Source: an uncultured Candidatus Babeliaceae bacterium (GTDB lineage: Bacteria; Babelota; Babeliae; Babelales; Babelaceae). Taken from it: a stretch of 64,000 bases of DNA. The notes beneath the pieces are model-generated. The model was given only the letters and a program-made list of their open reading frames with translations. It searched no databases and was not told the origin of the DNA. Each line of letters opens with the position of its first letter. Positions within the stretch are counted from its first letter, which is position 1. Made by a program: the position numbers and the translations under genes. The DNA lies in assembly GCA_963704655.1 (NCBI GenBank), contig OY969927.1, forward strand, positions 1,120,001 through 1,184,000. The letters are read 5' to 3'. Below are positions 8,791-15,393 of this stretch, piece by piece.

Positions 8791-10152
8791 ATGAACTATG
8801 TTGAATTGGATGAATTAGTAAAGAATATCGGTAGCTTTATCTGGGGTTGGCCGCTTATTATAGCCATTATGGCTGTCAGTCTTATTATGACGGTTGCCTT
8901 TGGCGGTATCCAGTTTAGATACTTTATGCGTTCATGGCAGTATCTTTTAAAACCAGAAGCGGGCGTTTCTCAAGAGGCTCAAGCAAATTATATTACTCCA
9001 TTTCAAGCATTTATTAATGCATTAAGCGCAAGTTTAGGCAATGGTAGTTTAGTGGGTATGGCAACTGCTATGTATAGCGGTGGGCCAGGAGCAGGTTTTT
9101 GGATCTTCTTTCTTGGCTTTTTTCTCATGTCTATCCGGTTTGCCGAAGTATATGCAAGTACTGCATTTACTGAAAAACAGGCAAGTGGGTTAATACGTGG
9201 TGGGCCAATGGTCTATCTTGCGCGTGTGCCAGGTGGTTCATGGTTGCCTTATTTTTATGCGTTCTTTTGCTTGATGTTAACCTTTGTTACCGGTAATGCT
9301 ATGCAATGTAACTCTATCGCACTGGGACTTGTGACCATGACCGCATGGAATTTATATGCCATCGCGTTAGTTATGTTTATCTTTTTGCTCTATGTCATGG
9401 TCGGCGGCGCGCAGCGTATCGTGCGTGTTTCAGATGCAGTAACACCTATTAAAGTAGGTTTGTTTTTTGTCGCTTCGGTAATAGTACTTTTTTATAATGC
9501 CGGGTCATTATGGCAGGCATTAGTTATTATGACACAACACGCCTTTACACAACAGGCAGTGCGCGGTGCTCTTCTTGGATACACTATGCAAACAGCGTTA
9601 CGTTTTGGGATTGCACGTTCTATTAACGCTACTGAGGTTGGTCTAGGTACATCAGGAATTATATTTGGCACCACTGGCACAAAAAATCCCGTTCGTAGCG
9701 GTATTATTTCTCTTGCAACAACCTCGATTAGCAACTTTGGTGTCTGTTTTCTTTTGATGTGGCTCTTTGTTGCAACGGGTGCTTGGAACAGTGGTTTAAA
9801 TGGTGTTGAAATGACTATTTTTGCCTATGAGACGACCTTCGGTAGCTTTGGTGGATGGGTAGTTAATACCCTGACAATGATGTTTGGGATAGGTTGTGTT
9901 ATTGCTTATGCTTATATCGGCCGCGAATGTTGGTCATTTTTAACGGGCGGCAAATATCTTTTTTGGTATAGCTTAATTTTTTGCTGCATGGCGCTATTTG
10001 GCGCACTTGTTGAAATGCGTATATTATGGAACGCTATTGATATCGTTAACGCAGGGCTTATTGTAAGTAACCTTTATGGCCTTATGTGGTTAATGCCGGA
10101 AATTCAAAAAGGGGTACGGGCTTTTTATGTACACGATCGAAAACGTAATTAA
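8791..10152 (+). CDS. Alanine/glycine:cation symporter (AGCS family)
   Basis: ITPFQA, GGPGAGFW, GGPMVYL, NAMQCNS. Confidence 0.9.
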   Translation: MNYVELDELVKNIGSFIWGWPLIIAIMAVSLIMTVAFGGIQFRYFMRSWQYLLKPEAGVSQEAQANYITPFQAFINALSASLGNGSLVGMATAMYSGGPGAGFWIFFLGFFLMSIRFAEVYASTAFTEKQASGLIRGGPMVYLARVPGGSWLPYFYAFFCLMLTFVTGNAMQCNSIALGLVTMTAWNLYAIALVMFIFLLYVMVGGAQRIVRVSDAVTPIKVGLFFVASVIVLFYNAGSLWQALVIMTQHAFTQQAVRGALLGYTMQTALRFGIARSINATEVGLGTSGIIFGTTGTKNPVRSGIISLATTSISNFGVCFLLMWLFVATGAWNSGLNGVEMTIFAYETTFGSFGGWVVNTLTMMFGIGCVIAYAYIGRECWSFLTGGKYLFWYSLIFCCMALFGALVEMRILWNAIDIVNAGLIVSNLYGLMWLMPEIQKGVRAFYVHDRKRN

Positions 10153-12877
10153 TAATATTAGTGATTTTTTATGGGGCTGGCCGTTAGTACTTGGGATACT
10201 AGCGGTGAGCATCATTATGACGGTGGCTTTTAAATGGGTACAGGTACGCTATTTTTGGCAGTCTTGGTATTACGTTTTTCATCCATCAGAAAAAAGTCTT
10301 GTTGGTGCTGAATATATAACGCCGTTTCAGGCATTTTTGAATACGTTAAGCGCGAGCTTAGGTAACGGAAGTGCAGCTGGCATGGCAACAGCTGTAGCCT
10401 CTGGTGGCCCTGGTGCAGCATTTTGGATTTTTATTGTTGGCTTTTTTGGGATAGCATTACGCTTTGCAGAAGTATATGCAAGCAGCTATTTTATGGATGA
10501 AAATAAGCAGGGCACGTTTCGTGGTGGCCCTATGGTCTATTTACAGTTAGTGCCGGGTAAAAAATATCTGCCTGCATTGTATGCTTTTTTTTGTTTATTA
10601 ACCAGTTTTGTCGCTGGCAGCGCTATGCAATGTAACTCTATGACCATTGGTATAGAACGACTTACCGGTTTTAGTAAGCCACTTATTGCTGCGATTTTAT
10701 TTATCACCATGGTCTATGTTTTGTATGGTGGCGCACAGCGCATTATACACTTTTCTGAAAAAATTATTCCTATCAAAGTGGGTTTATTTTTTATATGTAC
10801 ACTCACGCTTTTGGTATACCATGCGTTGGCTATTCCTGCAGCGTTAGCACTTATTTTAAAATATGCGTTCACGTGGCAGGCAGTCGCTGGTGCGGGCATG
10901 GGGTATACGGTGCAAACAGCATTGCGCTATGGTATTTCACGTTCAGTGAGCGCTACCGAACTTGGCCTTGGAACCGCAGGCATTTTATTTGGGACAACGG
11001 GAGGTAAAGAGCCCTTTAAAAATAGTATTATGTCGATGGCGTCACTCATGATTAGTAATCATTTAGTGTGCTGTTTATTGTTACTTATCTTTGTTGCAAG
11101 TGGCGTGTGGGACAGCGGGTTAACAAGCACCGCATTAACAAGCGCTGCATTTGAAACACTCTTTGGAATCTATGGCAAAATTATTGTAACATTCCTGTCT
11201 ATTTCTTTTGGTCTTGGTGTGTTGGTTGCATATGCTTATATTGGTCGCGAATGTTGGCTCTTTTTAATGCCGCGTGCTTCGACTATGTGGTATACAGTGA
11301 TTTATGCTTGCATGTCATTTTTTGGTATATTCAGCACCGTTGCGGTAGTGTGGAGCGCTGTTGATATTGCAAATGCCGGTATGTTGATTATGAACCTTTA
11401 TGGTTTAGTGATGTTACTGCCATTATTAATAAGAGCTTTTAATGCAGATGAAAAAAAACGCAAACCCGTCGCTGAACATGCTGTAACGGGGAAGAAATTG
11501 CCGCTACACTATAAAGTTGCTGCGCATACCGATAATGTTGGGCCCGGGTCGACGTTTGTTGCTATTCCTGGAACACAAAAAGATGGTACAGAGTTTGTGC
11601 AAGATGCATTAATGCGTGGGGCAACAACTATTGTCTTGGACAAGAATGCGCATCTTACAGCAGATTTGCAGCAGGCGCTTGCTGCAGTTTCTAGTTATCG
11701 TGTAGAAAATACTCGTAAAACGCTTGCTGAGTTAAGTGCGTATGCGTATGGTTACCCGGCAAGAAAATTAAAATTTATTGCAGTGACTGGCACAAAGGGT
11801 AAAACTACTACTACGTATTTATTGGAGCATATTTTAAAAACAGCTGGCTTTAAAATGGCTCGTTTAAGCACGGTAAGTAACGCAATTTTATCACAAGAAT
11901 ATGAAACACAATTAACTACGCAGCAACCTGACTATATTCATATGTTTTTAAACGAATGTGTTAAGCAGGGTGTTGAATGGGTCATAATTGAAGTTGCTGC
12001 GCAAGCACTCAGTATGCACCGTGTGTATGGTATTGAATTTGATGCTGTTGTTTTTACTAATTTCAGTCAAGAGCATGCAGAGTTTTATACAACACAGCAA
12101 GATTATTTTGCAGCAAAGGCTGCGATTTTTAAACAGCTTAAAAAGAATGGCACAGTAGTGTTAAACGATGACGACGCGTTGGTAAGTTCGTTACGCTCTC
12201 TATGTCCGCAGGCGCAGTTAAGTAGCCTTAATGACGTTACTATTATCGGCGCATCACGCGAAGGCGTGAGCTGTTATGTTGATCAGCTGGTTTTTGAAAA
12301 CACACATTTATTAGGCACCTTTAATTTGCATAATATTCATATGGCCTATCTTGTTGCACGTGCATTAAACATTTTACCTGAAGTTATACAGCAGGCTGTA
12401 TCTTCGTTTACCGGTGTTCCGGGTAGATTAAATAAATATACCCTTGAGCGTGATATTGTTGCGTACATTGATTATGCACACACGCCGTCTTCTATGAAGG
12501 CTGTGCTTTCAACATTGCGCAGCGAAACTGAGCAACTTATTGTTGTTTTTGGCGCTGGTGGTGAGCGTGACCCGATTAAGCGGCCATTCATGGGCGGACT
12601 TGCTGTTGAATATGCTGACATCGTTATATTAACCACTGATAATCCGCGTTCTGAAGAGCCTGAAAAAATTATGAAGGATATTCTTGCGGGGATTCCTGAA
12701 CATCTTATGCATAAGGTTATTATCGAATATGACCGCGCTGCAGCAATTAGATATGCATATTCTGTTGCGCAACCTGGCGCGATTATTGCATTATTGGGCA
12801 AAGGCCCTGATGAGTATCAACTTATTCAAGGAACAAAACATTATTTTAGTGAACGTGAAATTCTTAAATCGCTTTAG
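10127..12877 (+). CDS. murE: Fusion protein: AGCS symporter (about aa 1-440) plus MurE ligase (about aa 460-916)
   Basis: N-terminal GGPGAAFW/GGPMVYL; C-terminal VTGTKGKTTT, FTNFSQEH, VPGRL, IDYAHTP, FGAGGERD, TDNPRSE; no stop codon between the domains. Confidence 0.9.
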   Translation: MYTIENVINNISDFLWGWPLVLGILAVSIIMTVAFKWVQVRYFWQSWYYVFHPSEKSLVGAEYITPFQAFLNTLSASLGNGSAAGMATAVASGGPGAAFWIFIVGFFGIALRFAEVYASSYFMDENKQGTFRGGPMVYLQLVPGKKYLPALYAFFCLLTSFVAGSAMQCNSMTIGIERLTGFSKPLIAAILFITMVYVLYGGAQRIIHFSEKIIPIKVGLFFICTLTLLVYHALAIPAALALILKYAFTWQAVAGAGMGYTVQTALRYGISRSVSATELGLGTAGILFGTTGGKEPFKNSIMSMASLMISNHLVCCLLLLIFVASGVWDSGLTSTALTSAAFETLFGIYGKIIVTFLSISFGLGVLVAYAYIGRECWLFLMPRASTMWYTVIYACMSFFGIFSTVAVVWSAVDIANAGMLIMNLYGLVMLLPLLIRAFNADEKKRKPVAEHAVTGKKLPLHYKVAAHTDNVGPGSTFVAIPGTQKDGTEFVQDALMRGATTIVLDKNAHLTADLQQALAAVSSYRVENTRKTLAELSAYAYGYPARKLKFIAVTGTKGKTTTTYLLEHILKTAGFKMARLSTVSNAILSQEYETQLTTQQPDYIHMFLNECVKQGVEWVIIEVAAQALSMHRVYGIEFDAVVFTNFSQEHAEFYTTQQDYFAAKAAIFKQLKKNGTVVLNDDDALVSSLRSLCPQAQLSSLNDVTIIGASREGVSCYVDQLVFENTHLLGTFNLHNIHMAYLVARALNILPEVIQQAVSSFTGVPGRLNKYTLERDIVAYIDYAHTPSSMKAVLSTLRSETEQLIVVFGAGGERDPIKRPFMGGLAVEYADIVILTTDNPRSEEPEKIMKDILAGIPEHLMHKVIIEYDRAAAIRYAYSVAQPGAIIALLGKGPDEYQLIQGTKHYFSEREILKSL

Positions 12878-12887
12878 AGATATTATT

Positions 12888-13307
12888 ATGAACAAAATCA
12901 CTTTAATTTTTATCAGTTTTTTTTTGACAGTTTCTATGCATGCTTCAGAAAGTTTAGGTTATAAGTGTGCAATATATTTTAAAAGTTTACAGGAAAAGCA
13001 GACAAAGGGTTCTTTGAATTCTATTGCCAACTATGTCAAAAATCCTGATCCAGAGAATTGTTTTTTGCCAAACTCTGAAAAAGATGACAGTATGCGAAAA
13101 GTTCTTTATGCCCGCTTAGATGCTGTGCGAAAATTTTATTCGTTGGTAAAAAGACAGAAAGTAAATCCTGCTACAACTACATTAAGTGCACTTGCGCATG
13201 ATCTGGCTCAAAAAGATAATAAAAGCGCTCGGTATCTTCTTGAAGACCGTGACGGTTTTGCAGTAGCGGCCGTGCAACTTGCACTTTTAGAAATAGATAA
13301 GCCTTAG
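12888..13307 (+). CDS. Hypothetical secreted protein
   Basis: MNKITLIF..SMHA signal. Confidence 0.7.
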   Translation: MNKITLIFISFFLTVSMHASESLGYKCAIYFKSLQEKQTKGSLNSIANYVKNPDPENCFLPNSEKDDSMRKVLYARLDAVRKFYSLVKRQKVNPATTTLSALAHDLAQKDNKSARYLLEDRDGFAVAAVQLALLEIDKP

Positions 13308-13398: not shown

Positions 13399-15393
13399 AT
13401 GACGGAACTCATGGCCCCAATGTGGGCACTCATTAGCGGTTTTGCCGGTCTAGGCGCAGTAGGGTTATTATTGCGTTATATCATGGCGCTCAAGGTGGAC
13501 GATAAAAAGGCATACGATATTTCGCGTGCGATTCGTTTAGGTGCAATGACCTTTTTAAGGGAAGAGTATTCAATTATAGGTCTTGTAATAGCTCTTGTAG
13601 CAGCGCTTTTAGTGGCTGTCAGTGGGGTAACGGCTGCTCTTTGCTTTTTAAGCGGTTCTTTATTGTCATTATTGACCGGCCTTATCGGTATGCATGCGGC
13701 TACAGAAGCTAACGTGCGTACAGCAATTGCTGCTAAAAACCATGGTGAACGTTCTGCATTTTTAACAGCGTTCTTTGGTGGCGGCGTCATGGGTATTACC
13801 GTTGCAAGTTTTGGGGTAATTGGTGTTGGTGGCGTATTGCATTTTATGCTCCACATGCCTAATTTCCCAGTATTATTTACTGCATTTGGTGTAGGTGCAT
13901 CACTCGTGGCATTCTTTGCGCGTGTTGGTGGTGGTATTTATACTAAATCTGCAGACGTTGGCGCTGACCTTGTTGGTAAACTCGAAGCTAATATTCCAGA
14001 AGATGATCCACGTAACCCAGCAGTTATTGCTGATAACGTTGGTGACTGTGTGGGCGACACCGCAGGCATGGGCGCTGATATCTTTGAGTCATATGTTACA
14101 GCAATGATTTCATCTATTTTATTAGCGATTTCTTCAGAAAAATATGCTGGGTTAACCCATTATATTACGTTCCCATTAATGGTTTGCGTAATTGGTCTTT
14201 TTAGCTCATTACTTGGACTAATTTCGGTTTTAGTTTTAAGAAGCAGTTCTGCGACTTTATTACGCAACTCAACCTATGTAGCACTTGTTGCGTTTCTTGC
14301 ATCAACTGCCTATTACATGAATGCTATGGGTATCGATTTTGAACTCTATACGTCACTTGTTATCGGTTGCTTTAGCGGCGTGGTAATTGGTCTTATTACT
14401 GAGTACTATACTTCATCGACTCCTATTGCAAAATTGGCAAAAATCTCTGAATCTGGTGCAGCAACAAATATTATCTATGGCCTTTCTATTGGCATGGAAT
14501 CTGTTGTATTACCAATGTTCTTCTTGGCAGGCAGCGTTGTTTGCGCATTCACCTACGGCGGTGGCGTCTTTGGCGTTTCGCTTGCTGCGGTGGCTATGCT
14601 TGCTACAGTTGGTATTACTATGACGGTTGATGCATATGGCCCTATTGCAGATAATGCTGGCGGCATTGCGGAAATGGCGGCATTTGGAAAAAATGTGCGC
14701 ACTATTACCGATAGGCTCGATTCTTTAGGTAACACCACGGCAGCTATCGGCAAAGGTTTTGCTATTGGTTCTGCAGCACTTGCGGCATTGAGCGTCTTTG
14801 CGGTATTCAAGTTTGAAGCGGGTCTTGATGTACTCGATTTACTTAATCCGTTAGTACTTGCTGGTATCTTTATTGGTGCAGCTATGCCGTTCTGGATCTC
14901 TGCCCTTACTATGCGTTCTGTGGGTAATGCTGCTCTTAAAATGGTGGTCGAAGTCCGTCGCCAGTTCAAAGAAATCCCTGGCATTATGGAAGGTACCGCA
15001 CAGCCAGATTACGAACGTTGCATTGCAATTAGTACTAAAGCATCATTAAGAGAAATGATCCTTCCTGGTGTTATTACCGTTTCTGTACCTGTTCTTATCA
15101 GATTTGTATTTGGATTTACTTCAGGTGTTCAGGTTCTTGGTGGCCTTTTAGTTGGTGCAACTGTGTGTGGCATCGCGCTTGCCTTGATGATGGCAAATGG
15201 CGGTGGTGCATGGGATAACGCTAAAAAATATATAGAAGCCGGTCACTTTGGTGGCAAGGGTTCTACTGCACATCATGCTGCTGTTATTGGCGACACGGTG
15301 GGTGACCCATTCAAAGACACATCTGGCCCTGCATTAAACATTCTTATTAAGCTTATGTCCATGGTGGCACTCTTGCTCGTGGCGCTTAAGTAG
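13399..15393 (+). CDS. hppA: Membrane-bound H+/Na+-translocating pyrophosphatase, K+-dependent type
   Basis: [42 protein letters not shown]. Confidence 0.95.

Follow-up and report, generated by a model that had tools for sequence, protein, structure and literature searches.

We analysed a window of 64,000 nucleotides (nt) of DNA (positions 1,120,001 to 1,184,000 of contig OY969927.1) from an uncultured Candidatus Babeliaceae bacterium, whose genome (G000) is a single contig of 1.298 Mb and is 96% complete. Two genes lie one behind the other at window positions 8791 to 12877: a free carrier gene of the AGCS family, and a gene for 916 amino acids (aa) in which a second AGCS carrier is joined in frame to the peptidoglycan ligase MurE. 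The start of the 916-aa frame overlaps the end of the 453-aa carrier open reading frame (ORF) by 26 nt. The features of the pair, in window coordinates, are as follows.

8791..10152, + strand: free AGCS-family carrier, 453 aa, without the canonical Na+ ligands
10127..12877, + strand: AGCS-MurE fusion gene, 916 aa
10127..11440, + strand: carrier domain of the fusion, residues 1-438, with the AgcS fold
11441..11497, + strand: linker of the fusion, residues 439-457, differing in length and sequence between relatives and in frame in all intact ones
11451-11458: run of eight A (A8) inside the linker
11498..11500, + strand: TTG codon 458 at the onset of the MurE N-terminal motif, a possible retained internal start
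11498..12877, + strand: MurE domain, residues 458-916, with the P-loop at 11789-11812, DNPR at 12638-12649 and the variant motifs EVAAQ, QEHAEFY and GKGPD

Pfam assigned Na_Ala_symp to residues 61-446 of the 916-aa protein (E 2e-72) and Mur_ligase, Mur_ligase_M and Mur_ligase_C to residues 470-893. The protein scored above the cut-offs of two MurE models (NF001126, 401 versus 373 bits; TIGR01085, 401 versus 257) and of the agcS model TIGR00835 (276.5 versus 272.7), with the free paralog slightly below the last of these (261.5). The fused and free carriers share 52% identity (233/447). The MurE half has the three-domain fold of the enzyme, the P-loop GTKGKTTT (residues 555-562), the GGxRD and DNPR motifs (residues 808-815 and 838-841) and the conserved Lys, which is presumably carbamylated, and it is distinct from MurC, MurD and MurF of the genome. 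The fusion holds the sole murE of G000, no second copy being found in the genome; MurC, MurD, MurF, a double Ddl, two Alr, FtsW and MurJ are encoded elsewhere.

The earlier note, made from this one sequence, had proposed the fusion and named a stop or frameshift at the junction, or separate genes in all close relatives, as grounds for giving it up. Comparison of genomes confirmed the fusion: the frame is intact in 5/6 genomes of the Babeliaceae genus (Dependentiae/Babeliota), running full-length and free of stops in four of the five congeners (G001, G002, G003 and G005, at 79, 76, 83 and 73% identity, respectively). The intactness of the junction was judged by this comparison, as four public DNA runs gave no reads over 11313-11514. 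A protein identical to the window fusion occurs on 3 contigs in NCBI, ENA and Logan records, and at least 11 proteins with both domain sets occurred among the best 120 of 463 matches, three of which are apparently the proteins of G001, G002 and G005. Against the fusion stands the A8 run at the junction, which would suit an assembly error in the homopolymer or a stop loss that is recent and meaningless. In G004, the sixth genome of the genus (66% complete), the run is one A short and the frame is lost, with several further frameshifts in the locus, and the Logan protein P0273 is also out of frame with one A fewer at this run. Such an error is nevertheless extremely improbable, since the frame is open in four other species at 73-83% identity with unrelated linkers, and also in a full-length fused member at ~61% identity (P0270) that is found on 32 contigs. 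The fusion is real, to near certainty. Programmed slippage at the A-run was also considered and was rejected, the run being absent from G001, G002 and G005.

The twelve sequences of the fused clade have linkers of 7 different lengths, every one in frame, and the linker sequences are unrelated. Over 5 genomes, nonsynonymous and synonymous polymorphism per site (pN/pS) came to 0.13/0.75 in the carrier and 0.17/0.72 in MurE, against 0.51/0.80 in the linker. The low values in both domains and the in-frame linker lengths indicate that the frame has been kept while the linker drifted, and on these comparisons the fusion is kept by selection. Codon 458 is TTG or ATG in 5/5 intact genes and TTA in G004, and only 2/70 Leu columns have TTG in all four Leu-bearing genes; no conserved Shine-Dalgarno sequence was seen before this codon in the genomes of the genus. 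These codons give a weak hint that a soluble MurE may also be made from an internal start. In line with the earlier note, which knew of no description of the fusion, none was found in the literature searched, which covered few subscription journals, and the carrier-MurE fusion is apparently undescribed so far; an automatic JGI label on one homolog already names both domains.

An AlphaFold2 model of the fusion (148 sequences) had a mean predicted local distance difference test score (pLDDT) of 94 and a predicted template modelling score (pTM) of 0.66. The carrier half could be superimposed on AgcS (6cse) with a template modelling score (TM) of 0.90 and a root mean square deviation of 2.3, and the MurE half on MurE with a TM of 0.82, with low confidence for the linker (pLDDT <50 at 447-454). 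On the simplest reading of the model, MurE hangs on the cytoplasmic C-terminus of the carrier by a flexible linker. The C-terminus of AgcS is cytoplasmic (bioRxiv 10.1101/293811), so that MurE would face its substrates; this agrees with the membrane-tethered ligase of the earlier note, the cytoplasmic side being the expected one. A prediction of the complex between the carrier and MurE domains scored 0.00 in two runs (mark 0.32); it gave no verdict and was not used as evidence.

We surveyed 261 Babeliota genomes of one order, 189 of them near-complete, and found the clade carrier in 164/261 (135/189 of the near-complete ones). The two genes are usually separate. Where an unfused genome had both on the examined locus (n=38), they overlapped or lay ≤72 nt apart in 31, and 28/29 metagenome loci holding both genes were unfused, with the genes separate but neighbouring. 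The usual gene order is tsaB, ruvX, carrier, murE and pyrophosphatase. Stop-free matches spanning the junction were confined to the genus of the window; the two queries matched 108 and 39 of the 261 genomes. Long open-frame values in G016, G052 and G236 suggested extra fusions, and these candidates were rejected as separate genes in the same frame.

In the carrier tree (FastTree), the fused carriers formed a clade with a support of 0.996. Its sisters were the murE-proximal copies that G016 and G018 carry unfused (0.966 and 0.991), and the free paralog groups elsewhere. As the fused carriers nest with unfused murE-proximal copies, duplication and divergence preceded the fusion. The tree thus indicates that the fusion arose from an older Babeliota agcS-murE operon after a carrier duplication, and that the murE-proximal copy gained its own pocket residues and was then fused. 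Separate tandem carrier duplications were present in G106, G231 and G241. One further AGCS-MurE protein (P0013, 913 aa, one contig, 46% identity) has a much shorter linker and an N-type pocket. It fell outside the fused clade in all trees, with monophyly not rejected by the approximately unbiased (AU) test on 22 taxa (p 0.07 for the carrier, 0.30 for MurE and 0.08 for both joined). No relatives of P0013 were found in the metagenome scan, and it may represent a second, independent fusion.

The pocket of the carrier was compared with AgcS in the residue numbering of bioRxiv 10.1101/293811, mapped by alignment onto 60 sequences of the clade, which include close relatives, and onto 107 full-length AGCS representatives from outside the clade. 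The residues that hold the substrate's amino and carboxyl groups, Q170 and E276, are kept in 60/60 clade sequences (Q168 and E278 in the fusion). The Na+ ligands are largely gone: N80 is present in 1/60, S274 in 3/60 and D308 in 0/60, and the fusion has S82, A276 and S310 at these positions. Of the residues lining the pocket, I165 is found in 1/60, F273 in 2/60, T366 in 2/60 and W370 in 0/60, and they correspond to A163, S275, V365 and Y369 in the fusion. Among the 107 outside representatives, N80 occurs in 91, S274 in 86, D308 in 90, F273 in 88 and W370 in 83; all three Na+ ligands are kept together in 68/107. The alignment shows a clade that has lost the Na+ site and the small hydrophobic pocket of AgcS.

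In AgcS, loss of the three Na+ ligands lowers uptake, and I165A or F273A widens the specificity so that larger amino acids are admitted (bioRxiv 10.1101/293811); glutamine is carried by other AGCS members (PMC12795558). Since the Na+ and pocket residues are replaced in the clade, and I165A and F273A have this effect in AgcS, the clade carriers probably bind, without the AgcS Na+ site, an amino acid that exceeds Ala in size and polarity. Judging from these residues, specificity for Ala/Gly with Na+ is improbable. The free paralog has T/N/C at the AgcS I165/F273/T366 positions, and 38 fixed differences separate the fused from the free paralogs (12 versus 5 sequences), three of them in the substrate pocket.

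The MurE domain belongs to a variant type. Two types of MurE were found in Babeliota: a canonical one, whose 7 sequences come from families that have DapF and lack the clade carrier, and a variant one (57 sequences; EVAAQ, EHxE and mostly GKGPD), in families with the carrier and Alr. The canonical motifs EVSSH, DHLD and GKGHE are not kept in the fusion, which has EVAAQ, EHAE and GKGPD instead, and the changes in EVSSH and DHLD are invariant in the carrier branch (57/57). D, N and R of the DNPR motif are conserved in 64/64 Babeliota MurE, with one DDPR in G193, which indicates a diamino-diacid substrate; the role of MurE Arg416 has been described (PMC3060825). In the carrier-less genus g11 (L070, L079-L082, L285-L288), two MurE motifs near the diamino-acid site are altered, DYAH to DNAH and GKGPDE to GKGP[VI]E. 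A coupling of this change to carrier loss was considered and rejected; the change is present in all g11 genomes examined and is not repeated in G210/G211.

The usual diamino-diacid at the third stem position of such walls, meso-diaminopimelic acid (DAP), has no evident source in the genome. DapA, DapF and DAP dehydrogenase were not found in G000 (DapB, Asd and LysA were not searched for), and DapA occurred in 1/61 genomes. A pyridoxal 5'-phosphate (PLP) enzyme resembling cystathionine β-synthase (CBS) is near-core in the phylum, its gene being present in 239/261 Babeliota genomes and in 182/189 near-complete ones, G000 included:

G000:C1:712660-713571 (L152:6661-7572): CBS-like PLP enzyme of G000

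Its best solved relatives, among the best 60 of 105 matches, are cystathionine β-synthases, and no cystathionine lyase to consume its product was found in G000. The gene lies ≤1 gene from dapF in 20/20 of the best DapF loci (DapF being found in 63 genomes), and likewise in G038. Seven near-complete genomes are without it, and four of these have 0-1 Mur ligases (G008, G051, G053 and G126, from three families), which implies, from gene content, that peptidoglycan synthesis was lost at least three times in the phylum. CBS makes lanthionine (PMC9232105), the lanthionine walls of Fusobacterium are made by a PLP synthase (PMC11602996), and DAP-type MurE uses lanthionine and, weakly, cystathionine (PMC12681378). 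The CBS-like PLP enzyme is thus a candidate wall lanthionine/cystathionine synthase. In the same literature as above, no paper on Babeliota stem-peptide chemistry was found; the available text of the Babeliota genome papers (PMC6561590, PMC4776705) mentions a complete mur pathway or its loss and not the third residue.

The wall could instead be an ordinary meso-DAP wall, in which the carrier scavenges meso-DAP from host-digested bacteria or DAP-making hosts and passes it to MurE, with the CBS-like enzyme making only cysteine. The conserved DNPR motif and upstream Arg, the best-scoring MurE models (DAP ligases), the missing DAP synthesis genes, the enlarged polar pocket and a DapF over the cut-off in the other branch all suit this explanation. 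It leaves unexplained a CBS-like gene that is near-core, stands beside dapF and is missing where Mur ligases were lost, and MurE and the CBS-like gene are kept without carrier and DapF in g11, G210, G211 and G175. We regard it as improbable.

The branch with DapF keeps a DapF above the cut-off, and the carrier and DapF are nearly exclusive, both being present in 4/63 DapF genomes. These counts include the DapF of G199, whose contig is 1.2 kb long, and the divergent DapF of G012 and of G016, neither of which is linked to the CBS-like gene; all three are probably separate acquisitions. The operon of CBS-like and DapF-like genes in one branch is often divergent from gltX (L115-L134). Behind it lie two unusual AGCS carriers (G038, L096) or an NhaC-type transporter (three loci: L120, L123 and L131), and by their position these transporters beside the CBS-dapF operon form another pathway link to amino-acid import.

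The source of D-Glu in G000 is likewise unexplained by MurI, D-amino-acid transaminase or DapF, none of which was found in this genome; MurI-like genes occurred in 12/61 relatives. The carrier might therefore supply a D-amino acid not made by the known enzymes of the branch, most likely D-Glu (or D-Cys), with a purely positional link to MurE. MurD of G000 looks canonical, and the motifs changed throughout the MurE of the branch, EVSSH and DHLD, are ones that we take to contact the D-Glu end. AgcS carries D-Ala (bioRxiv 10.1101/293811). Yet the carrier is tied to murE and not to murD, carrier-less lineages are without MurI too, and the two Alr-type racemases present could be broad, which makes this role of the carrier very improbable.

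Taken together, we propose that the third residue of the stem peptide is lanthionine or cystathionine and that the tethered carrier supplies this residue or its precursors, with a probability of roughly 0.5. In this scheme the carrier would transport a polar amino acid of larger size, probably with proton coupling or without any coupling. A phylum without DAP synthesis would place a thioether diamino-diacid at stem position 3, made by the near-core CBS-like PLP enzyme, and the carriers would import either the finished diamino acid or its precursors Cys, Ser or homocysteine from the protist host. Through the fusion, expression would be fixed at 1:1 and MurE would be kept at the membrane, next to the site of import. 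Considering the parts separately, we lean towards a thioether at stem position 3, and to about the same degree towards a carrier that serves the MurE step; true hand-over between the two active sites is unlikely. The fullest version, in which the AGCS subfamily is a Na+-independent thioether importer, the thioether wall extends through the phylum and the fusion is an import-to-ligation unit committing a host sulfur metabolite to the wall, is doubtful.

Compared with this proposal, the interpretation in the earlier note stood in part. Beside the fusion and the cytoplasmic ligase, it was right in assuming an auxotrophic parasite, the host belonging to a lineage of auxotrophic protist parasites (the congeners are Ca. 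Babeliaceae/Dependentiae), and its suggestion that the two carriers may differ in substrate agrees with the three pocket positions. Import of Ala/Gly misfits a clade whose Na+ ligands and pocket residues are replaced. DNPR is no proof of meso-DAP addition here, as a DAP-type MurE can use lanthionine or cystathionine as well (PMC12681378) and the phylum has the near-core CBS-like enzyme. Direct hand-over from carrier to ligase is unproven: the linker is unconserved and of low confidence in the model, and most relatives use separate genes.

Several observations weigh against the thioether proposal. The CBS-like protein scores above no curated cut-off, a published genome paper reads such enzymes as serine/cysteine conversion (PMC6561590), and in the loci examined for this branch, carrier and CBS-like gene never adjoin. 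The three remaining near-complete genomes without the CBS-like gene (G048, G050 and G107) keep four Mur ligases and the carrier; they are too few to carry much weight, because 135/189 near-complete genomes have the carrier anyway. The mutual exclusion of carrier and DapF was rejected as independent proof, since it reflects one deep split in the MurE tree, with Alr on the same split. The fusion itself occurs in 1 genus of 145 among GTDB genomes, and its predicted fold is a loose tether with no fixed domain arrangement. Furthermore, FN1732 of Fusobacterium nucleatum, a DapF-like protein that is a histidine racemase and a poor lanthionine epimerase (PMC11602996), should by analogy warn against inferring a lanthionine epimerase from a DapF-like gene.

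Carrier and wall also part company in both directions. In G008 (95% complete) the carrier is kept, while murE has left no remnant, Alr and the CBS-like gene are missing and a single Mur ligase is present, so the single-copy carrier has a use outside the wall. Conversely, MurE is kept without the carrier in three lineages (genus g11, 0/10; G210/G211; G175), with the CBS-like gene kept in nearly all. This loss fits a 'make or import' supply of the residue and also a general nutrient carrier; the numbers are too small to decide. The carrier could then be a general nutritional importer that shares the murE operon by history, the fusion being a stop loss that became locked in, bringing co-expression and anchoring MurE at the membrane without any substrate link. 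That the operon also holds unrelated genes (e.g., thrS and the pyrophosphatase), that the linker is near neutral, that known Mur chimeras often join non-sequential steps (PMC10214165) and that a free upstream paralog makes fusing one copy cheap would all be consistent with this. However, insertions often split the other neighbours, yet carrier and murE abut in 31/38 genomes; the fixed pocket changes of the fused copy predate the fusion, being found in murE-proximal copies; and the fused carrier is still under purifying selection. On balance this explanation is rather unlikely, and we retain the thioether proposal.

The remaining features around the fusion are the following.

8240..8692, - strand: ruvX/yqgF, conserved divergent neighbour of the operon
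8683..8711, + strand: candidate sigma-70-like promoter, 11/12 consensus matches, upstream of the carrier-carrier-MurE operon and back to back with ruvX
13399..15393, + strand: membrane pyrophosphatase (H+ or Na+ pump), conserved downstream neighbour

The promoter candidate is a consensus match, of which the region has 23 versus 19.2 expected. Directly 3' of the fusion lies a 139-aa ORF (window 12888-13307) with no Pfam match and with homologs in the same place in G001, G003 and G004. Three small tandem ORFs with signal-like N-termini (window 4984-6302, - strand), two of which share nearly identical last 14 residues, are probably a secreted paralog family. An alanine-racemase-like gene, an ABC ATPase gene and murJ stand in a row at window 54217-57602. 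The best NCBIfam score of this racemase-like gene was to the VanT serine racemase domain, under the cut-off; a second alr of G000 lies at G000:C1:419089, and one of the two Alr-type racemases could be a Cys, Ser or Glu racemase. The D-Ala-D-Ala ligase of G000 (L157:7246-9447) is a tandem double-domain protein of 734 aa, and a double-domain Ddl in one long frame is also present in G003, G054, G058 and G129. An EamA-family transporter gene abuts murD in G000 (L155:6453-8620), a genome in which no known D-Glu source was found.

As a gene fusion, the protein hints at what its large, uncharacterised AGCS subfamily transports. For a phylum of protist parasites in which a complete mur pathway goes without DAP synthesis, it also suggests, in testable form, where the cross-linking residue comes from, and cultured Babeliota members exist (PMC6561590). 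If the thioether proposal is true, a whole phylum would have a Fusobacterium-like wall chemistry.

Structural and sequence comparisons place both halves of the fusion near known proteins. The carrier resembles AgcS of Methanococcus maripaludis (TC 2.A.25; PDB 6CSE/6CSF) in its fold, its Pfam family (PF01235) and Q170/E276. It differs in sequence (~28% identity), in the replacement of the three Na+ ligands and four side-chain pocket residues and in being fused to an enzyme, and its function here is predicted. The MurE half shares with meso-DAP-type MurE (E. coli 1E8C, M. tuberculosis 2WTZ) the three-domain fold, the P-loop, the conserved Lys, GGxRD and DNPR. Unlike these enzymes, it is membrane-tethered, carries EVAAQ, EHAE and GKGPD in place of EVSSH, DHLD and GKGHE, as across its branch, and stands in a genome where no DAP pathway was found.

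The proposed wall chemistry resembles that of Fusobacterium nucleatum in the missing DAP pathway, the PLP β-replacement enzyme and, in one branch, the DapF-like racemase. The lanthionine synthase of F. nucleatum is FN1220 (PMC11602996), whereas the Babeliota enzyme is closest to cystathionine β-synthases, is operonic with dapF in one branch and is known here from genes alone, its tie to wall synthesis being one of gene order and co-loss.

Natural Mur chimeras of five main types have been reported: MurE-MurF, MurC-Ddl, MurC-MurB, MurG-MurC and MurD-FtsW (PMC10214165). Like them, the fusion joins a Mur ligase in frame with an operon neighbour and is conserved across species, and MurD-FtsW also combines a ligase with a membrane protein. 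Its partner, however, is a solute carrier instead of an enzyme of wall synthesis; neither 'symporter' nor 'transporter' appears in the main text of that survey. As to a fixed interface between the domains like that of the linker-less MurE-MurF, the model of the fusion gave a pTM of 0.66 and a low-confidence linker. With this fusion, a carrier-ligase type joins the Mur chimeras known so far.

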